Source: Clostridia bacterium
Lineage (GTDB): Bacteria; Bacillota; Clostridia; TANB77; CAG-508
Assembly (NCBI GenBank): GCA_022795675.1
Contig: JAAWHY010000020.1
Coordinates: 1-15,768, forward strand
Direction: 5' to 3'
Length of the DNA stretch: 15,768 nt
The translations under genes were made by a program, and so were the position numbers. The notes below the pieces were generated by a model. It was not told where the DNA came from. It made no database searches and saw only the letters and a list, made by a program, of their open reading frames with translations. Shown piece after piece: positions 1 to 13,025 of this stretch (the stretch's first letter is position 1; each line of letters starts with the position of its first letter).

Positions 1-18
1 ATACATATTAATATGTAT
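1..18. repeat. Perfect 18-bp palindrome ATACATATTAATATGTAT at the window edge, followed by a T-run (TTTTTTTATTTTT). Possible weak terminator of an upstream plus-strand gene, or an operator.
   Basis: The 18-mer read directly is its own reverse complement. A T-tract follows at 23-37. Confidence 0.35.
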
Positions 19-69
19 ATGCTGTTTTTTTATTTTTAGAACTCTATTTTTTTGTTTTTGAAATTAACA

Positions 70-97
70 GAAGCACTCACCTAAGCAAGTGCTTCTC
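70..97. other. Stable hairpin of unknown function in a non-coding region: AGAAGCACT / AGTGCTTCT, 9-bp stem with a 10-nt loop.
   Basis: Inverted repeat read directly. Neither strand has a U-tract after it, so it is not a classical terminator. Confidence 0.3.
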
Positions 98-420
98 ATT
101 AACGTAAGTTTGACATATGTGCCCTTTCCTGTATTTCTTTTGACCTTATTTCTAAGGTGCGTAGCAGTACAAATCTCCACTTTAAATCCTATGTTCTTAT
201 TGTATCTTTATTATAACATTTTTATTCCTTTTTGTAAACACATTTATTCCTTTGCACACGGCAATTTCATCTATTATTACAAAATTATAACATTTAAATA
301 ACTAAATTTTATAGAGATATGGGATATCTATTTTTCGTAAAAAACCTTGTTACTTTGTATCATGTTTTTCAGCTCTGTCGCTTTTCCCGAAAAAATGGAA
401 AAGAGAACCGTCCCCATTTC

Positions 421-458
421 CACAAATAAAAAGAGGGGACCATATTGTTGGTACCCTC
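421..458 (-). terminator. Rho-independent terminator downstream of the flotillin gene.
   Basis: Minus-strand RNA reads GAGGGTACCAACAATATGGTCCCCTC followed by TTTTTATTTG. The stem is 10 bp with one mismatch. It lies about 75 nt after the floT stop. Confidence 0.55.
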
Positions 459-530
459 CAAAAAGAATGTAGTGGATTAGTAACTAACCTAAAAGTTTAT
501 GCTGTGGATTTTATTCAGTTTTGATTTTTC

Positions 531-2240
531 TCAACCTTGGAAAGCGTCTTCTGTGGTGTTTTTCAAAGCACCAAGACCACTGAAAGTTGCATCAGAGAGC
601 TCCTTAATTTCGTCAGCCATGGACTGTCCGTTAAGCGCCTGATTTTCAACATTGAGCACTTTCATGATTCCAGGAATGGACATGATAGTGTCTAAAAGAG
701 CATTTCCACCTCCTCCCGTACCATTAAGTCCAGCGAGGTTACCGCCGCCAATATTGACGAACTCTGCATTCTGACCGATATTGGCCATAATTTCTGCAGT
801 GCTGGTAGCAATCTTAATCTGAGCGTCAGTCTGAATTTTCAACTTTTCAATTTCGAAGTTTACATTATTACAAGCAGCCCGTGCTTCAGCAAGTGCACGT
901 TCACCTTCTGCTTCAGCAAGCTTCTTAGCTTTAATACCTTCTGCTTCTGCAAGCTGCTGAGCTTTAGTACCTTCTGCTTCTGCGAGAAGCTGGGCCTTAC
1001 GACCTTCTGCTTCTGCTACCTGCTGAGCCTTAGCAACATCTGCTGCTGCGCTACCTTCTGCACGAGTCTTGGCAGCAGTAGCTTCTGCTTGTAATTTGAC
1101 TGCTTTTGCATCCTTCTCAGCAACAGCAACACGTGCTTCAGCCTGAGTCTTCTGAACATCTGCGCTACCTTCTGCTTCCTTGCGCTTAGCATTAGCCTTA
1201 CGCTCAGCTACCTGAATTTCATTGTCAGCCTCAATAGAGTTAACTTCAGCAATAGCCTCTGCGTTAATGCGCTTAGTAGCCTTTTCAGACTCAGCACGAG
1301 TAACCATAACTGCTCTTTCCTTCTGTGCTGCGAGATTCATCTGCTCCTGCTTCATAATCTCAACAGCACCACGCTGTTCTTCAACTTCTTTCTGTCTTAT
1401 AGTCGCCTGAAGTTCCTTTGCAACTTCGGCATTTGCCTGGGCAGTGTCGGTCTCAATACGGAACTGAGCAATTTTCATATCAGTTTCCTTTCTCTTTTCC
1501 TTTTCTGCCTGTTCAGCATCCATGCGAGCAACTTCAGAATCACGGTTTGCTTCAGCTTCAGCTCTTTCTGCTACAAGACGTTCATTAGCCTGACGTTCAC
1601 GGGTGATACGATCAGTCTCAGCAGCCTTGATATCAGCAGCTTTCTGCTTCTCGGATTTATCGAGGAATGCAATGTTCGCAAAATAATCATTGCTGTCGGT
1701 AATATCCTGGATGTTGAGGGAAACGAGTTCAAGCCCCATCTTGTTCATCTCATCATCAACAGATTCCTGAACGTTTCTCTTAAATGCCTCTTTATCAGCA
1801 AGAACCTCCTCAGGTGTCATACTTGCAACAACGTCACGAACGGCACCCATAAGGGTAAGACGAACATCCTCGATTATACCTGCTTTCCCCCTTTCTTTAA
1901 AAGAGATAATGGCAGTTTCGAGCTTCTCCTCGTTGTGTCTGTCAGGACGAATCTGAGCTGTCCAGTCAACAATAATTGGAACTGCTGTCTTGGTCATAAT
2001 CTCATCTTCATCTGCCGGAACAGTGAGCATACAAAGGTCAAAGAAATCTGCTTTCCTAATAATAGGAATCACGAAGGCACCGCCAGAGATAATGATCTTA
2101 GGCTTCTTACCACCTGTAATGATAAGAGCTTTGTCAACGTCAGCAATGCGATACATGCTCTTCGCAAGCAGAACAAGTGCCAGAAGTACAAAAAGTCCAA
2201 TGATAATAGGGATAGTAATGGATAAAATCGTTCCTGTCAT
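531..2240 (-). CDS. floT: Flotillin (SPFH/band-7 family, FloT/YuaG-like), 569 aa.
   Basis: Domain order is an N-terminal TM helix, an SPFH core, a long Ala/Glu-rich coiled coil with AEAEGxKAxxL repeats, and a Gly-rich C-terminus. It starts at ATG, with AAGGAG 10 nt upstream. Codon usage (CGT, CTG, CTC, ATC, GGT/GGC) and G+C are clearly different from the neighbouring genes. Confidence 0.9.
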   Translation of the reverse strand: MTGTILSITIPIIIGLFVLLALVLLAKSMYRIADVDKALIITGGKKPKIIISGGAFVIPIIRKADFFDLCMLTVPADEDEIMTKTAVPIIVDWTAQIRPDRHNEEKLETAIISFKERGKAGIIEDVRLTLMGAVRDVVASMTPEEVLADKEAFKRNVQESVDDEMNKMGLELVSLNIQDITDSNDYFANIAFLDKSEKQKAADIKAAETDRITRERQANERLVAERAEAEANRDSEVARMDAEQAEKEKRKETDMKIAQFRIETDTAQANAEVAKELQATIRQKEVEEQRGAVEIMKQEQMNLAAQKERAVMVTRAESEKATKRINAEAIAEVNSIEADNEIQVAERKANAKRKEAEGSADVQKTQAEARVAVAEKDAKAVKLQAEATAAKTRAEGSAAADVAKAQQVAEAEGRKAQLLAEAEGTKAQQLAEAEGIKAKKLAEAEGERALAEARAACNNVNFEIEKLKIQTDAQIKIATSTAEIMANIGQNAEFVNIGGGNLAGLNGTGGGGNALLDTIMSIPGIMKVLNVENQALNGQSMADEIKELSDATFSGLGALKNTTEDAFQG

Positions 2241-2326
2241 AATAAAAAACTCCTTTTCTTTTTGATTTTAATCAATATTCTCCACTACATTATTCTTTTA
2301 TTGTACAACATAAACTCTATCTCTAT

Positions 2327-2355
2327 ATTATACCACACATCTATACTTATGTAAA
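2327..2355 (-). promoter_or_regulatory. Sigma-A-type promoter for floT (TTTACA-17 nt-TGGTATAAT, extended -10).
   Basis: The plus strand reads attata (2327-2332), then a 17-nt spacer, then tgtaaa (2350-2355). That is a consensus -10 with an upstream TG, and a 5/6 match at -35. It sits about 95 nt upstream of the floT ATG. Confidence 0.5.
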
Positions 2356-2499
2356 CATTTTTGACGATTAAATTAGGGGTGCTTCATCAAATATTGCAAT
2401 AGTCCTATAATTTTTGAGCTTGCAATCATTAACATTTATTGGAAATATCACAATTTTGTAACAAATAATGAAATGCCCCCTATCCTTTGCATTAATTTT

Positions 2500-3384
2500 C
2501 TAAAACTCCCAATTTGGAACATATTCTTCTTCATGTTCTCCTAATTCTTGAATATATCCATTTTCTAAGTCTAATTTATATAAATAATTTTCTATTTCTT
2601 TATATTCCTCTTTTGTTAATTTTCTGTTTAAGTCGCTTTGCATTGCATTATATGTTGGAAAGTATTGTGCCATTACACTTACATAGACTTTATTTCCTAA
2701 ATTAGTTTTTATCCACTTTAAGATTCTTTTTGAGTTTTCAATATGATTTGGAAGTACTAAATGTCTTATTATAACTCCCTTTTTTATGATTCCTTTTTCA
2801 TCTATATTTGGACTTCCAACTTGTTTATACATTTCTTTTATAGCTTTTGTAGATATATCAAAATAATTATTTACTTTTGAATATTTTTCCCCTAATTCAT
2901 TATAATAGTATTTTAAGTCTGGTAAGTAAACATCAATATAGCCTTCTAATATTTTTATGGTTTCTATGTTTTCATATCCATTTGAATTATATATTATTGG
3001 TATATTTAATCCATTTTCCTTTGCGATTTTTATTGCCTCTATTATTTGATAAGCATAGATTGTAGGTGATACTAGGTTTATATTATTTGCTCCCTTTTCT
3101 TGTTGTTTTATAAATATATCTGCTAATTCATCAATGCATATTTCTTTACCTCTTCCAGTTTGACTTATTTCATAATTTTGGCAAAATATACAATTTAAAT
3201 TACAGTTAGAAAAAAATACTGTTCCTGAGACTTTTTCTCCACTAATACATGGTTCTTCAAATTTATGTAATGAATATAATGCAATTTTGATTTTATCTGT
3301 TCCCTTACATCTCCCTAATTTTTCTTTTCTATTAATATTACATTTATGTGGGCATGTGTTACAATTTTCTAGTTCTTTTAACAT
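2500..3384 (-). CDS. Radical SAM protein, PflX-like (COG1313-type homolog of pyruvate formate-lyase activating enzymes), 294 aa.
   Basis: It carries a CNLNCIFC motif (CxxxCxxC, the radical-SAM [4Fe-4S] cluster) and an extra N-terminal CNTCPHKC cysteine cluster. Size and layout fit the PflA/PflX activase family. It starts at ATG 3382-3384. Confidence 0.8.
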   Translation of the reverse strand: MLKELENCNTCPHKCNINRKEKLGRCKGTDKIKIALYSLHKFEEPCISGEKVSGTVFFSNCNLNCIFCQNYEISQTGRGKEICIDELADIFIKQQEKGANNINLVSPTIYAYQIIEAIKIAKENGLNIPIIYNSNGYENIETIKILEGYIDVYLPDLKYYYNELGEKYSKVNNYFDISTKAIKEMYKQVGSPNIDEKGIIKKGVIIRHLVLPNHIENSKRILKWIKTNLGNKVYVSVMAQYFPTYNAMQSDLNRKLTKEEYKEIENYLYKLDLENGYIQELGEHEEEYVPNWEF

Positions 3385-3441: not shown

Positions 3442-3453
3442 CTTACTTATTTA

Positions 3454-6812: not shown

Positions 6813-8126
6813 TTATTCCTCTATTTCATCATTTTCTATTTGTTCAACCTTACATGCTTTTACTTTTGAAATATGCCTATCTTTTACATTTTCAATTTTG
6901 TATGCTACTTTTTCTGTTTCTATTACTACTCCTTTATCTTTCTCAGTTGGAATTCTTCCTAATTCTTCTACTAAATATCCTGAAAGTGTATCATAATCTC
7001 CTTCTTCAATATCTATTCCTAAAATATCTTCAACTTCATATATTGCTAATTTTCCATTTAGTACAAATGTATTTTCATCTATTTGGTCAATTAATTTCTC
7101 TACTTTGTCATATTCATCATAGATGTCTCCAACTATTTCTTCTAGTATATCTTCCATTGTGACAATTCCTGATGTTCCACCATATTCATCTATTACTATC
7201 GCGATTTGTTTTCTATTTTTTCTTAGTTCTTCAAATAATTCATTTACTGGTTTTGTTTCTGATACAAAAAATACTTCTTTCATTAGATTTTTTATTTTTG
7301 TATTTTTATTTTTTGTAGATAATAAAATATCTTTTATATATACTATTCCTTTTATTTTATCTATTTTTTCATCATATACTGGAACTCTACTATATCTTAA
7401 ATCTTCTGATAATTCTTCGATTACCTCTGAAATTGACATATTCATATCTAAAGCAAATATCTCTGTTCTAGGTATCATAATTTCTGATACAACTTTGTCG
7501 TTGAATTCAAATACATTGTTAAGCATATTTTTTTCTTCTTCATCTATTGTTCCTTTTTCTTTTCCAACATCTATCATCATTCTAATTTCTTCTTCTGTTA
7601 CAGTTTCTTCTTCACTTTCTGATACTCCAAATAATTTTGAGACTATATTTGTAGAAAGTGTTAAAAATTTAACAAATGGTGATGTTATTACAGATATTGT
7701 TTTTATGATTCCAATAGAAGCAAAAGCTATTTTTTCACTATTTTTCATTGCTAGTCTTTTTGGTACTAATTCCCCAAATATTAACGTGAAATATGATAAT
7801 ATAATTGTAATTACTATAATTGCGATATTATTCCATGCTGTTAAACTTATTGCTGGAATCCATCTATTTAATATTGGTGCTAATTCACTTGCAAAAGTTT
7901 CTGATGCAAAGGCACTTGATAAAAATCCCGCAAGTGTTATTCCTATTTGAATTGTTGCTAAGAACTTACTTGGGTTTACTAACATTTCCTTAATCTTTTT
8001 CGCTTTTTTATTTCCTTGTTTTGCTTGTAAATCTATTTTTGCATCATTTAATGAAATAAAAGCTATCTCTGCTGCTGCAAAAAAGGCATTTAATAATATT
8101 AAAATTATAATTACTAATATTTGCAT
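6813..8126 (-). CDS. Hemolysin-family / CNNM (DUF21)-CBS-CorC_HlyC transporter-associated protein. The start is revised to the ATG at 8124-8126.
   Basis: Multi-TM DUF21 N-terminus, then a tandem CBS region, then a CorC/HlyC C-terminal domain. AAAAGGAG lies 8 nt upstream of MQILV. The track's longer ORF adds 14 residues with no RBS. Confidence 0.85.
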   Translation of the reverse strand: MQILVIIILILLNAFFAAAEIAFISLNDAKIDLQAKQGNKKAKKIKEMLVNPSKFLATIQIGITLAGFLSSAFASETFASELAPILNRWIPAISLTAWNNIAIIVITIILSYFTLIFGELVPKRLAMKNSEKIAFASIGIIKTISVITSPFVKFLTLSTNIVSKLFGVSESEEETVTEEEIRMMIDVGKEKGTIDEEEKNMLNNVFEFNDKVVSEIMIPRTEIFALDMNMSISEVIEELSEDLRYSRVPVYDEKIDKIKGIVYIKDILLSTKNKNTKIKNLMKEVFFVSETKPVNELFEELRKNRKQIAIVIDEYGGTSGIVTMEDILEEIVGDIYDEYDKVEKLIDQIDENTFVLNGKLAIYEVEDILGIDIEEGDYDTLSGYLVEELGRIPTEKDKGVVIETEKVAYKIENVKDRHISKVKACKVEQIENDEIEE

Positions 8127-9435: not shown

Positions 9436-11430
9436 TTATTTTATCATATCTTCAAATTCTTGTTCTGATATTACTATTATTCCCAAATTTTCTGCTTTTG
9501 TGAGTTTTGAGCCAGCCTCTTCGCCTGCTAGTACATAACTTGTCTTTTTTGATACAGAACTTGAGGTTTTGCCTCCAAATTTTTCTATTATTTCACTTGC
9601 TTCATCTCTTGTGTATTTTTCTAGCGTTCCTGTTAGTACAAAGGTTTTTCCGGCAAATCTATCATCTCGTAATTCTACATCTTCATGACTTTCCATGTTT
9701 ACACCTGCATTTTTTAGTTTTTCTATTAAGTCTATTGTTTGTTCTTGGTGAAAAAATTCATATATGCTTTTTGCTGATATTCCCCCTATTGTATCTATTA
9801 AGTTTAGACTTTCTATACTTGCATTCATTACACCTTCTATATTTCCATATCTTCTTGCAACAATTTTTGCTGCTTTATTTCCAATATGTCTTATTCCTAA
9901 TGCACATATTAGCCTTTCTAAATCATTGTTTTTGCTCTCATTAATAGCATCTATTAAGTTCTGCGCAAATTTGTCTCCACTCTTTTTTAATGAAGCTATT
10001 TCTTCTTTTTTTAGATAGTATATGTCTGCAATATTACTTAGATATCCTCTTTCTATAAGTTGCTCTATTACAGATATTCCTAGTCCTTCTATGTCCATTC
10101 CTGATTTAGAGGCAAAATGGACTAAATTTTGTAAATTTCTTGCACTACATTCTATTCCTATACAATACCACGCTGCTTCTCCTTCTTCTCTTACAACTGC
10201 TCCTCCACATACTGGACATACTTTTGGCATTTCAAATTCTATTTCTTTTCCATTTCTTTTTTGTTTTAAAACATCTACTACTTCTGGTATTACATCTCCT
10301 GCCTTTTGAATTACTACATGGTCTCCTATCTTTATTCCTTTTTCTTTTATAAAGTCTTCATTGTGTAATGTTGTTTTAGATATTGTTGACCCTGCAAGTT
10401 CTACTGGTTCTAATATTGCAACTGGAGTAATTGCTCCTGTTCTACCTACTTGACATTGTATTTCTTTTAGTATAGTTTCTTTTTTCTCTGGTGGATATTT
10501 ATATGCGATCGCCCAACGTGGTACTTTAAATGTTGTTCCAAGCTTTTCTCTATAATCCAAATTATCAACTTTGATGGCTGCTCCATCTGTTCCAAATGTT
10601 AGACTTTCTCTTCTTTTTCCTATGTCTTCTACCGCTTCTATTGCTTCTTCAATTCCATGACATAGTTTTTTTTCTGGATTTACATTGAATCCTAATTTTT
10701 CTAAGTATTTTAATTGTTCATAGTGTGAATTAAATTTATTTCCTGTTAATCTTTGAATATTAAATATATAGATATCTAATGGTCTTTTTTCTGTCATTTT
10801 ACTGTCTAATTGTCTTAATGAACCTGCTGCTGCATTTCTTGCATTTGCAAAGGTTTTCTCTCCTAAAATTTCTTGTTCTTCATTCATTTTTTCAAAGTCT
10901 TTTTTAGATATAAAAATTTCTCCGCGAACTATTAGATTAACAGGTTCCTTTAATTTTTTAGGTACATTTTTTATTGTTCTTATATTTTCTGTAACATCTT
11001 CTCCTTCTGTACCATTTCCTCTAGTTGCTCCTGTTACATATTCTCCTTTTACATATTCTATTGCTGAAGATAAACCATCTATTTTGGCTTCTACAGTATA
11101 ATCTATTTCTTCTATTCCTAACTGTTTTTTTACTCTTTCATCAAAACTCCTAAGTTCTTCTATGGAAAATACATCTTGTAGACTTTGAAGTGGTATTTCA
11201 TGCTCTATTTTATTAAAGCCTTCTTTTACAGTTCCACCAACTTTTTGAGTTAATGAATCTTTATCTATGAATTCTGGAAATTTTGCTTCTAAATTTCTAA
11301 GATCTACCATTAGCATATCATACTCTAAGTCACTTATTTCTGGTGCATCATCATCATAATATTTTTTTGCATAATATGAGGTTTTTTCTCTTAACTCTTT
11401 TATTCTCTTTTCTGCTTCTTCTTTATCCAT
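9436..11430 (-). CDS. ligA: NAD+-dependent DNA ligase.
   Basis: KxDG adenylation motif (KIDGLS), a four-Cys zinc finger (CPVCGG...CIGIEC), HhH region and C-terminal BRCT. The size is 664 aa. Confidence 0.95.
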   Translation of the reverse strand: MDKEEAEKRIKELREKTSYYAKKYYDDDAPEISDLEYDMLMVDLRNLEAKFPEFIDKDSLTQKVGGTVKEGFNKIEHEIPLQSLQDVFSIEELRSFDERVKKQLGIEEIDYTVEAKIDGLSSAIEYVKGEYVTGATRGNGTEGEDVTENIRTIKNVPKKLKEPVNLIVRGEIFISKKDFEKMNEEQEILGEKTFANARNAAAGSLRQLDSKMTEKRPLDIYIFNIQRLTGNKFNSHYEQLKYLEKLGFNVNPEKKLCHGIEEAIEAVEDIGKRRESLTFGTDGAAIKVDNLDYREKLGTTFKVPRWAIAYKYPPEKKETILKEIQCQVGRTGAITPVAILEPVELAGSTISKTTLHNEDFIKEKGIKIGDHVVIQKAGDVIPEVVDVLKQKRNGKEIEFEMPKVCPVCGGAVVREEGEAAWYCIGIECSARNLQNLVHFASKSGMDIEGLGISVIEQLIERGYLSNIADIYYLKKEEIASLKKSGDKFAQNLIDAINESKNNDLERLICALGIRHIGNKAAKIVARRYGNIEGVMNASIESLNLIDTIGGISAKSIYEFFHQEQTIDLIEKLKNAGVNMESHEDVELRDDRFAGKTFVLTGTLEKYTRDEASEIIEKFGGKTSSSVSKKTSYVLAGEEAGSKLTKAENLGIIVISEQEFEDMIK

Positions 11431-11486: not shown

Positions 11487-12134
11487 CTAGTCTTTTAATA
11501 AATCTTTTCCGCCTCTTAAGTAATCCCATCCCGAAAAAATTGTTGCTATTACACATATTACTAAAAGCGATGTTGATAAAATGTTAATTCCAAATTGCAT
11601 ATTATTCATGTATATACTTGCACTGTTTTCCATCATTGCTTGTGTATTTGAAACTCTAAAAATAAATTGTCCAAAGCTAAATTTATCAGCAAAACAACAA
11701 ATTACTGCAAGCATTTGTGTTACTGTTTTTATTTTCCCCCAAATTGATGCTGGTATTACTTTTCCGCCTTTCTCTACTGCAATTAATCTATACCCTGATA
11801 CCATAAATTCTCTTATTAATATTATTATAGGTATCCATGCTGGAATTCTTGAATATTCTACTAAAATAACTAGTGCTGCTATTACTAGAATTTTATCTGC
11901 TATTGGGTCTAAAAATTTCCCAAAAGTTGTAACTTGATTCCATTTTCTTGCAAGTGTTCCATCTAATTTATCTGTAAGTGCTGCTATTATAAAAATTATA
12001 TTCATTATCCAAAATGAAGTAGTTATTCCTAAAAATTCCCCTGGTATTCCAACTATACTATCAATTATTGGAATAATCATCATTATTATAACCAAAATCA
12101 TTCTAAAAATCGTAAGTTTATTAGGTAAATTCAT
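11487..12134 (-). CDS. pgsA: CDP-diacylglycerol--glycerol-3-phosphate 3-phosphatidyltransferase.
   Basis: CDP-alcohol phosphotransferase motif DKLDGTLARKWNQVTTFGKFLDPIADK. The N-terminus MNLPNKLTIFR matches the PgsA type. Multi-TM. Confidence 0.9.
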   Translation of the reverse strand: MNLPNKLTIFRMILVIIMMIIPIIDSIVGIPGEFLGITTSFWIMNIIFIIAALTDKLDGTLARKWNQVTTFGKFLDPIADKILVIAALVILVEYSRIPAWIPIIILIREFMVSGYRLIAVEKGGKVIPASIWGKIKTVTQMLAVICCFADKFSFGQFIFRVSNTQAMMENSASIYMNNMQFGINILSTSLLVICVIATIFSGWDYLRGGKDLLKD

Positions 12135-12266: not shown

Positions 12267-12299
12267 ATTACATATAAAAATTTGGAGGAGGAAGCAGTA

Positions 12300-13025
12300 A
12301 TGCAAACAGAATTTAGAATTCTACATTCTCGGGTTATAGAAAATGGAATCATGTTTTATTCTAACTCTAATGAAGATTATGCTGCTATATCTACTATTGA
12401 TAAAAATGGTAATATAAAAGCAGAATGGACTTCAGTACAGAAATACAGAAAGGAGCATAAAAAAGAACAAATAATAGTAGACTTTAAAAATTTTTTACTT
12501 TTTTTACCACTTATTATATTTTTAGTAATTCCTTTTGTTATATTACTTTTTAGTGGAGCTTTTACAAGTAGATATGCTATTAAAAATCTTTTACAGTTCG
12601 CTTTAATTTGTAATTTAGTTATTATTTTAACAGTTCTATTATATAGACCCAAAAACATGTTAAAACTTAAAGCAGCTTCTGATATGCTCGTTAATGCATA
12701 TCGAGAACTTAGAAGTCCACCATCTCTTGAAGAACTTTCTACATATTCTTACTTGGATAATTTTAGTGGTAGTAATTCACTAATGCTAACAGCTATTATT
12801 GATATATTACTTCTTTTTTGTACTTGCATTAACAATCCATTTATTGCAATTATAGTATCTTTAATTGTAGTAGTGCTTATTAAACCAAAGCTTGAAATAT
12901 TATCTTATACTTACGGTTTTCTTAATTTTTCTCAGGCATTTTCTAAAACATCACCAACAGATACAGAATTAATGGTTGCAATTTCAGCACTGGAAGTTTG
13001 GATTAAAAACGAAGGATATAAATAA
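12300..13025 (+). CDS. Hypothetical membrane protein (241 aa from the ATG at 12300). It has a soluble N-terminal domain of about 65 aa followed by two pairs of TM helices.
   Basis: The track ORF starts at TTG 12282, which overlaps the SD GGAGGAGG, so ATG 12300 is the likely start. It is the only plus-strand gene in the window and is divergent from pgsA. I recognise no motif. Confidence 0.55.
   Translation: MQTEFRILHSRVIENGIMFYSNSNEDYAAISTIDKNGNIKAEWTSVQKYRKEHKKEQIIVDFKNFLLFLPLIIFLVIPFVILLFSGAFTSRYAIKNLLQFALICNLVIILTVLLYRPKNMLKLKAASDMLVNAYRELRSPPSLEELSTYSYLDNFSGSNSLMLTAIIDILLLFCTCINNPFIAIIVSLIVVVLIKPKLEILSYTYGFLNFSQAFSKTSPTDTELMVAISALEVWIKNEGYK

Follow-up and report, generated by a model that had tools for sequence, protein, structure and literature searches.

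The window analysed here is a complete contig of 15,768 bp (JAAWHY010000020.1) from a metagenome-assembled genome (MAG) labelled 'Clostridia bacterium'. Close to one end it carries a gene for a flotillin-family protein whose third codon positions are far richer in guanine and cytosine (GC) than those of its neighbours. The evidence favours, with a probability of about 0.6, a self-contained flotillin cassette that circulates among AT-rich gut Clostridia and was recently inserted at this site, whose GC-rich codons are intrinsic to it and whose mRNA contains two long-range helices. Atypical GC content or codon usage is the standard signal for recent transfer from a compositionally different donor. 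Here, the insertion is truly recent and a donor of that kind is not what the composition suggests, which is a warning for composition-based calls of horizontal gene transfer. All comparisons start from the window and all sequences compared are metagenome assemblies; homologous or flank-matching loci from database assemblies are labelled L001 to L047.

In the mechanism that we propose, positions 424-2374 would form a monocistronic expression cassette comprising a near-consensus promoter, a structured 5' untranslated region (5'UTR), a strong ribosome-binding site, the coding sequence (CDS), a 3'UTR and a terminator. This cassette would be exchanged among very AT-rich (25-31% GC) gut Clostridia. 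It would have reached the lineage of the window within a 2.46-kb piece that included about 500 nucleotides (nt) of AT-rich flank from another low-GC genome, landing between a radical SAM (rSAM) gene and the spoIIIA operon. A codon usage favouring T-ending codons, CAG and CGT would be held at equilibrium in AT-rich hosts rather than being the residue of a GC-richer donor, probably through selection tied to high expression or a long mRNA life. The helices would pair the 3'UTR with both the start of the mRNA and the middle of the 5'UTR, and might shield the 5' end from decay of the RNase J/Y type.

A more specific version is tentative, at less than even odds. It proposes a cassette without a recombinase, a selected codon usage that exceeds that of its hosts by some 20-30 GC3 points (GC at third codon positions) and differs from the one in the hosts' ribosomal protein genes, and an mRNA closed by pseudoknot-like helices that sequester its 5' end. 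If true, it would describe a transferable gene carrying its own high-expression, high-stability package.

A recent insertion between the rSAM gene and the spoIIIA operon

The cleanest result is that the flotillin gene is a recent insertion in the lineage of the window. The rSAM protein has homologues at 96% and 86% amino acid (aa) identity, and the relatives share the gene order rpsF-ssb-rpsR-...-rSAM-spoIIIAA-AB-AC-AD-AE-AF-AG-AH, with no flotillin. The gene is missing from the rSAM-spoIIIAA site both in L030-L037 (96.5-97% nt identity) and in L038-L040 (86%). The closer contigs, which were drawn from at least eight independent samples, align with the window from position 8084 to 2492 at 96.5-97% nt identity, then break off, and align again from 44 to 1, in the rSAM terminator. 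Because relatives at 97% and 86% share the intact site, parsimony strongly favours a gain in the lineage of the window over two identical, precise losses. The flotillin protein forms a cluster with a single member, as against 23 for the rSAM protein, and no other flotillin match exceeds 90% aa identity. The preliminary description had proposed a recent horizontal acquisition and a look at the locus in close relatives; the empty site bears out the recent insertion, while the compositionally different donor that it envisaged did not hold up, as detailed below.

These data bear on an alternative in which an ancestor of the low-GC Clostridia acquired the gene once, and vertical descent, slow amelioration, rearranged contexts and loss in the relatives of the window explain the rest. 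The collinear empty site, complete with the rSAM terminator in both the 97% and the 86% relatives, would then need two identical precise deletions. Furthermore, the allele of the window is at most 90% aa identical to any database entry, though its species is well sampled. An assembly artefact, whether a chimeric join or a contaminant in the MAG contig, might be suspected because the gene lies 530 nt from the end of a 15.8-kb contig that ends in a palindrome. This is extremely improbable: host sequence is found on both sides of the insert in one contig, and a low-GC flank next to the GC-rich gene recurs in more than 25 independent assemblies, including the inside of a 365-kb contig.

The insert is bordered by an imperfect direct repeat of 13-14 nt. 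The right copy is the same as the empty-site sequence, GAGTTCTAAAAAT, from which the left copy, GAGTTTTAGAAAAT, differs at three positions. No clean target-site duplication is thus present at the insert, and because of the three differences the repeat is not a fresh duplication. No convincing terminal inverted repeats were found at the insert ends; the best pair (264-295 and 2443-2474, 78%) is internal and AT-rich. A homologous crossover inside the rSAM gene was considered for the left junction and rejected: mismatches between the window and L030 are evenly distributed over the gene, with the deviation confined to the last 13 nt, which makes a long homologous crossover unlikely. As no recombinase is visible and the junction is only a short imperfect repeat, illegitimate, microhomology-type or trans-acting site-specific recombination would be the probable route.

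The contig stops within the rSAM terminator, a perfect palindrome (AGCATATACATATTAATATGTATATGCT in the relatives), and the palindrome probably broke the assembly; spoIIIAA is not seen in the window because of this end. A second difference in gene content is found at about position 3452, between rpsR and the rSAM gene, where the 97% relatives hold some 1.3 kb of extra DNA (L031:4697-5911) encoding a PBECR3-domain gene (137 aa) and an open reading frame (ORF) of 81 aa. This DNA is missing from the window and from the 86% relative L038. The rpsR-rSAM-spoIIIA intergenic regions look like a hotspot of small insertions.

A conserved transcription unit in unrelated contexts

The flotillin gene belongs to a conserved transcription unit (Table 1). 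In blastn alignments with L001-L009 and L041-L047, at 82-90% nt identity, the ends of the unit are constant (window 2360-2374 to 424-428), and the alignments fade within a few bases on the upstream side of the -35 box and directly after the T-tract of the terminator. The -35 and -10 boxes are invariant over seven aligned loci. Because the unit ends lie upstream of the -35 box in the other loci, comparison of the sequences indicates that the predicted promoter is part of the mobile unit and not captured host DNA. The TTTACA-17-TGGTATAAT promoter of the preliminary description is indeed present; its reading as native DNA of the recipient was wrong. The 259 nt that separate the rSAM gene from the flotillin CDS hold the unit's own promoter. 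The start of the feature had earlier been set at 330, a non-coding position beyond the terminator; 531 is the last position of the CDS, and 424 that of the conserved unit.

Counting the window, the unit occurs in at least six unrelated flank contexts. These are rSAM/spoIIIA in the window; an HD-domain ORF and a 130-aa ORF in L001-4; a phosphoribosyltransferase or GIY-YIG gene on one side and GDT1, LeuRS or another gene on the other in L005/8/9/45/47; the context shared by L006 and L046; a transfer RNA (tRNA) gene plus palindromic repeats in L007; and LysM/DUF6512 in L041-44. Changes of context can be seen even between very similar units. Homology between L046 and L006 (98.8%) is lost 28 nt past the unit, and that between L047 and L009 stops exactly at the unit end. 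L045 and L009 share 99.0% identity in the unit and 93.9% in the flank upstream of it. The L001 and L002 proteins are identical and the upstream flanks of these two loci 99.8% identical, while their downstream flanks are only 85% identical. Such mosaic identity, with breakpoints at the unit ends between strains that are 98-99% identical, is a further argument against a single ancient acquisition.

The AT-rich DNA that was inserted together with the unit (120 nt and 379 nt; 499 nt in all, 30% GC) was found in no other flotillin locus compared. Because these flanks have a GC content of 30-31%, the immediate donor context would appear to have been AT-rich.

Table 1. Features of the flotillin insertion and its surroundings (positions in the window)
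Feature	Position	Strand	Remarks
Flotillin-family CDS	531..2240	minus	569 aa; sole long ORF within 330-2240
Conserved flotillin transcription unit (promoter, 5'UTR, CDS, 3'UTR, terminator)	424..2374	minus	1951 nt, GC 0.428
Predicted sigma-70-type promoter, TTTACA-17-TATAAT with extended -10 (TGGTATAAT)	2327..2355	minus	11/12 consensus matches
Helix A, 5' arm, AGAGTTTATGTTGT	2305..2318	minus	Predicted mRNA 5' end; starts 7-9 nt past the -10 box in all lineages
Helix B, 5' arm, AAAAGAATAATGTAGTGGA	2281..2299	minus	Middle of the 5'UTR
Shine-Dalgarno sequence, AAAGGAG	2250..2256	minus	9 nt ahead of the ATG
Helix A, 3' arm, ACAGCATAAACTTT	492..505	minus	26 nt past the stop codon in the window
Helix B, 3' arm, TCCACTACATTCTTTT	461..476	minus	Immediately before the terminator
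Predicted intrinsic terminator: GGAGGGTACC, loop, GGTCCCCTC, TTTTT	428..459	minus	Kept in relatives
DNA extra relative to close relatives	45..2494	minus	About 2.46 kb if a single flanking-repeat copy is included
AT-rich co-inserted DNA, upstream side	2375..2494	minus	120 nt, GC 0.31
AT-rich co-inserted DNA, downstream side	45..423	minus	379 nt, GC 0.30
Left imperfect direct-repeat copy, GAGTTTTAGAAAAT	2495..2508	minus	Contains the rSAM stop codon TAG (2502-2500)
Right direct-repeat copy, GAGTTCTAAAAAT	32..44	minus	Same as the empty-site sequence
rSAM gene (host flank)	2500..3384	minus	In relatives followed by its own terminator and spoIIIAA
Palindromic rSAM terminator	1..31		Window 31..1 matches L030 both ways

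Several observations concern the surroundings of the unit in other genomes. Database contigs with close flotillin homologues are in many cases no more than 1.8-3 kb in length and roughly match the unit in size, consistent with assembly breaks at the ends of a sequence common to several genomes per sample, though short contigs are frequent in that collection anyway. In L001, the 365-kb contig with an 85% identical flotillin, a stretch 8-10 kb upstream (L001:1-1922) contains genes for TnpV, a NikA-like protein and a relaxase. A mobilisable element is thus nearby; the intervening genes are of normal low GC.

Codon usage of the flotillin gene

The gene has a GC content of 0.451 and a GC3 of 0.360, while the GC3 of the 12 other genes of the window is 0.114-0.162 (mean 0.137, standard deviation (sd) about 0.015); simple arithmetic on these per-gene values gives a z-score of about 15. 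Sliding-window GC is 0.40-0.50 from about 450 to 2250 and 0.20-0.35 in the remaining window. The codon shares are inverted relative to the neighbours, rpsR included. CAG makes up 93% of Gln codons (8% in the other window genes), AAG 66% of Lys codons (11%) and CGT 55% of Arg codons (3%), while ATA accounts for 4% of Ile codons (65%) and TTA for 8% of Leu codons (63%). The gene has a codon log-likelihood score of +0.565, which exceeds the mean of 197 flank ORFs (-0.428, sd 0.198) by about 5 sd. The foreign look of the codons and the high GC content, the latter estimated by eye beforehand, are therefore real.

What could have produced this signature is less obvious. Much of it consists in the use of T-ending codons (GGT, GCT, GTT, ACT, CCT and ATT) instead of A-ending ones, and because such swaps leave GC unchanged, GC-biased gene conversion is insufficient as the sole cause. 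The signature is not simply the optimal codon set of the host either, because rpsR, rpsF and ssb do not share it: CGY (Y, C or T) is found in 0 of their 24 Arg codons and ATA in 13 of their 21 Ile codons. Classical translational selection was rejected as the source on the same grounds.

Only one further real gene among the 197 flank ORFs resembles the flotillin gene in codon signature; it encodes a protein of about 500 aa with metallo-beta-lactamase, beta-CASP and RMMBL domains (RNase J/CPSF-like). It lies 3-8 kb upstream of the flotillin gene (L016:675-2189, L015:88-1338 and L018:3582-5090) and has a GC of 0.43 and a GC3 of 0.45, in host genomes with a GC3 of about 0.19. In L015, a Bro-N (phage-type) gene is located immediately upstream of the flotillin gene.

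Hosts of the unit and the direction of sequence change

The homologues at 63-90% aa identity for which DNA was fetched are all in Clostridia assemblies, with a flank GC of 0.25-0.31. In nearly all of those loci, the flotillin gene is a GC-rich island, with a GC of 0.38-0.48 and a GC3 of 0.18-0.42, compared with a GC3 of 0.12-0.24 in the flank ORFs. In hosts that are themselves GC-rich (0.55-0.57), only 52-53% identical proteins were found, and their GC3 matches that of their own genome. The genome scan reached sequences that share 8-residue peptides with the window protein. The preference for CGY, CTY, GGT and CAG and the avoidance of ATA recur across lineages between which synonymous divergence (dS) is saturated. 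A plasmid or phage vector was also considered and rejected: tblastn searches of PLSDB and INPHARED gave no close relatives on plasmid or phage records (at most 30% identity), and IMG/VR holds only proteins of about 50% identity, without the UTR helices described below.

The explanation offered by the preliminary description was that a flotillin CDS and its terminator came from a mid-G+C Firmicute, landed behind a strong native promoter and have not yet ameliorated. The strong compositional contrast, the empty site in close relatives and the AT-rich promoter region all speak for this, as does a codon style (T-ending codons, CAG and AAG) that we take to resemble that of mid-GC Clostridia. However, the part concerning the promoter is largely refuted, since the gene keeps this promoter and 5'UTR in other genomes and contexts. 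The search for a mid-G+C top match led elsewhere, to close homologues that, as far as examined, all sit in 25-31% GC genomes, and the nearest GC-rich hosts carry only the 52-53% identical proteins. The co-inserted flanks are 30% GC, the plasmid and phage matches do not exceed 30% identity, and there is no AT-ward substitution bias. Overall, this explanation is very unlikely.

Given that a gene from a GC-richer donor should decay towards the composition of its new host, the direction of synonymous change is informative. Polarised synonymous singletons were counted by parsimony on terminal branches of the clade that includes the window, at sites where the seven other sequences agree. They comprise 52 AT->GC and 30 GC->AT changes, whereas decay to the host GC3 of 0.13 predicts about 3.2 GC->AT changes per AT->GC change (binomial p = 4e-14 against decay). 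With a conservative rate ratio taken from flank genes, decay is still rejected (p = 1e-4). A similar picture is seen in the syntenic and evidently vertical trio L014/15/16, with 20 AT->GC and 18 GC->AT changes at a GC3 of 0.42. Because the synonymous changes show no AT-ward drift, the GC-rich codon composition looks maintained, resembling an equilibrium rather than a fading scar, and the idea of an un-ameliorated anomaly finds no backing here. Gene-specific selection for expression or for mRNA properties probably maintains the bias; this would be a case of one gene whose synonymous sites are held far from the genomic equilibrium.

The same counts bear on the single ancient acquisition introduced above. 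Synteny is retained within L014/15/16 and within L013/22/11, as vertical descent predicts, and GC3 ranges from 0.18 to 0.42 among lineages, as if these were stages of decay. In L013/22/11, moreover, AAG and GAG are at the host level while CGY and CTY persist. Yet dS between lineages is saturated and all of them are still GC-rich, and the excess of GC->AT changes expected from slow amelioration is lacking. Together with the empty site and the mosaic identity, this makes an ancient origin with vertical descent unlikely.

Predicted pairing of the 5' and 3' untranslated regions

The untranslated regions of the unit contain two pairs of complementary arms, here called helix A and helix B. Transcript ends were placed from the positions of the promoter and the terminator, at about 2318-2320 (5') and about 428 (3'); the 5' arm of helix A would thus be the very start of the mRNA. 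In the window, helix A consists of 14 bp including two G.U pairs, and its 3' arm is found 10-26 nt after the stop codon, depending on the lineage. The arms in other lineages read GAGTTTTATT... on the 5' side and AATAAAACTC on the 3' side. Compensatory changes occur in L017 (GGGTTTTATT / AATAAAACCC) and L001 (TAGTTTT / AAACTA), and where relatives of the window show a U.U mismatch, the window itself shows a G-C pair. Helix B differs among lineages while keeping its complementarity, with the arms AAGTTAGTGAT / ATCACTAACTT in L012, TGTCGGAAAATATAT / ATATATTTTCCGACA in L013/22/11 and AATAAGTAGTTTGTA / TACAAACTACTTATT in L014-16.

Each of the 16 loci tested has complementary UTR arms of lineage-specific sequence. 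Cognate helices of the L013 and L014 groups reach 14-17 bp, while cross-clade combinations give 7-11 bp and shuffled sequences average 9 bp. In homologues of about 50% identity, UTR pairing is not above background. Indels and lineage-specific registers of the arms made one reliable alignment impractical. The two covarying helices suggest a closed, stabilised mRNA. They would provide a comparative, multi-lineage example of end-to-end pairing in a bacterial mRNA, which has so far been known from a few experimental cases such as hbs.

Complementary arms could also be DNA elements, either the borders of an invertible, phase-variable CDS segment or the ends recognised by a trans-acting transposase, as in a mobile insertion cassette. 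The arms flank the Shine-Dalgarno sequence and the CDS with the promoter outside, they covary as recombination sites kept identical would, and the unit is clearly mobile. However, promoter and CDS are collinear and in the same orientation in all of about 27 loci, and no invertase or recombinase gene was found beside the unit in the annotated contexts (L001, L002, L005, L041 and L045). The conserved unit reaches past the arms, by about 50-75 nt upstream and about 35 nt downstream. The order of the arms is A,B...A',B', which is crossing and pseudoknot-like; a terminal inverted repeat would read A,B...B',A'. Transition mismatches under unbiased scoring are 14 G.U and three A.C. Lastly, L013/22/11 lack helix A and have a local 5' hairpin in its place, a replacement that is sensible for an RNA and not for a recombination site.

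In a scan of the metagenome collection for inverted junctions, the pattern ATGTRGTGGATTAGTAAYTAAC, which lies inside an arm and is the reverse complement of the normal 3' junction, matched two ordinary ON-state loci, which speaks neither for nor against inversion; a junction spanning the whole arm, as an inverted CDS would give, reads for example CAACAAAAGAATAATGTAGTGGATTAGTAACTAAC. Overall, a role as DNA elements has a low probability. Pairing at the RNA level that would hide the 5' end is favoured because of the G.U excess, the crossing order, the local hairpin of the L013 clade and the lack of pairing in distant homologues.

The closest documented case is the hbs mRNA of Bacillus subtilis, in which the 5'-UTR and the 3'-UTR interact over 14 bp, which modulates cleavage by RNase Y and hence access for RNase J1 (Braun, Durand and Condon 2017, PMC5737220). 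The unit of the window differs from it in having two crossing helices, one of them at the very 5' end of the transcript, with a span of 1.8 kb. In addition, its helices are predicted from covariation across lineages, and its gene encodes a predicted membrane scaffold, not a nucleoid protein.

Limits of the proposed interpretation

Several points weigh against a maintained, circulating cassette with a paired mRNA. Firstly, the codon preference is missing from ribosomal protein genes, which is odd for classical translational selection, and the claim of selection is based on parsimony counts; the test on the L014/15/16 trio becomes marginal once it is calibrated on its own flank genes (p = 0.054). 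Secondly, mobility comes without a recombinase, terminal inverted repeat or clean target-site duplication that would explain it. Some of the one-sided context changes could be chimeric joins through the shared unit; such joins would still require near-identical units in co-resident genomes, and the window has host DNA on both sides. Thirdly, an unsampled mid-GC reservoir is possible, as the scan was limited to sequences sharing 8-residue peptides. Finally, covariation of the UTR arms would be seen as well if the arms were DNA recombination sites.

The protein and the absence of nfeD

The protein is assigned by profile and sequence matches to the flotillin family of SPFH proteins, a known family; the packaging around the gene is the new part. 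The Band_7/SPFH domain (PF01145) covers residues 38-210 (E 9.6e-24, 84.8 bits against a cut-off of 23.6). It is preceded by a hydrophobic N-terminal anchor, read off the translation at residues ~5-27 (ILSITIPIIIGLFVLLALVLLAK), and followed by an Ala/Glu-rich coiled-coil region (AEAEGRKAQLLAEAEGTKAQQLAEAEGIKAKKLAEAEGERALAEA; AEAEG four times; 94 Ala and 65 Glu in 569 residues) and a Gly-rich C-terminal part. All five sequence matches among solved structures are flotillin-1 or flotillin-2 (best E 1.1e-26; human flotillin-1/2), the phmmer alignment with flotillin-1 reaches residue 386, and there is no stomatin, prohibitin or HflK/C among the five.

The anchor, the SPFH/Band 7 domain and the Ala/Glu coiled coil with EA-type repeats are shared with FloT (YuaG) and FloA of Bacillus subtilis and Staphylococcus aureus and with eukaryotic flotillin-1/2, and the window protein presumably acts as a membrane-microdomain scaffold, as other flotillins do. 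The label floT, used previously, is right as to the family (Band_7 and flotillin-1/2 matches) and goes too far as to orthology: the protein matches the NCBIfam FloT equivalog NF058507 partially, at 145.7 bits where the cut-off is 700, and so by the NCBI criterion it is not scored as a FloT orthologue. At 569 aa, it is also longer than FloT, which has about 509 aa.

In nearly all bacterial genomes, the flotillin gene is reported to occupy the second position of an operon with nfeD (PMC11222466). In contrast to this canonical arrangement, the gene of the window is predicted to be monocistronic, with its own promoter and terminator and no nfeD upstream. No NfeD-like ORF was found in the window from ORF translations and Pfam, NfeD (PF01957) is not listed in the precomputed annotations of L001, L002, L005, L041 and L045, and a scan of nine flanking proteins of L001, L010, L012, L013 and L015 gave none. 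A stand-alone flotillin without an adjacent nfeD is a trait of the family. The preliminary description was thus correct that the gene is an orphan; because no context annotated or scanned has an adjacent nfeD, this state is not a by-product of transfer. In one group of gut Clostridia, flotillin genes often lack a neighbouring nfeD, which bears on the question of NfeD as an obligatory partner.

As a genetic element, the unit is reminiscent of horizontally acquired genomic islets, mobile insertion cassettes and cis-mobilisable elements: a discrete atypical segment, missing in close relatives, with short direct repeats, varied contexts and no recombinase of its own. Unlike mobile insertion cassettes, it has an imperfect direct repeat and no terminal inverted repeats at the insert ends, and the analysis revealed no cognate transposase or integrase. 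Unlike typical islets, its atypical composition is seemingly maintained, and the hosts of all close relatives share the low GC of the recipient.

Other features of the window

No tRNA genes were detected in the window, and an Rfam scan of it gave nothing above gathering thresholds. Its sole plus-strand gene (12282-13025) encodes a predicted membrane protein of 247 aa without a Pfam or NCBIfam match.

The co-inserted downstream DNA contains a second near-consensus promoter, TTTACA-17-TGTTATAAT, at 238..210 on the minus strand. It is followed by about 110 nt with a weak skipping-rope-like match at 190..105 and then by a 12-bp hairpin at 96..69. The match, the only weak Rfam hit, is full-length and below the Rfam threshold (25 bits against 36.7), with many non-canonical pairs. 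The fold z-score is -2.25, and the same region holds an ORF of four codons (MSNL) behind GGAAAGGG. It is tempting to speculate that 238..69 could be a small RNA gene travelling with the cassette.

Intergenic hairpins of these AT-rich genomes repeatedly contain the heptamer GGGGACG, mostly in or beside the loop. The window has one site (409-415) where 0.05 are expected, another is at L030:1449-1455, and L006 has five. In L007, a palindromic element of about 64-70 nt with GGGGACG lies on both sides of the flotillin unit (9727-9793 and 11753-11816; 92% identical), next to a tRNA gene. This element may be a repeat of the repetitive extragenic palindrome (REP) or miniature inverted-repeat transposable element (MITE) kind.

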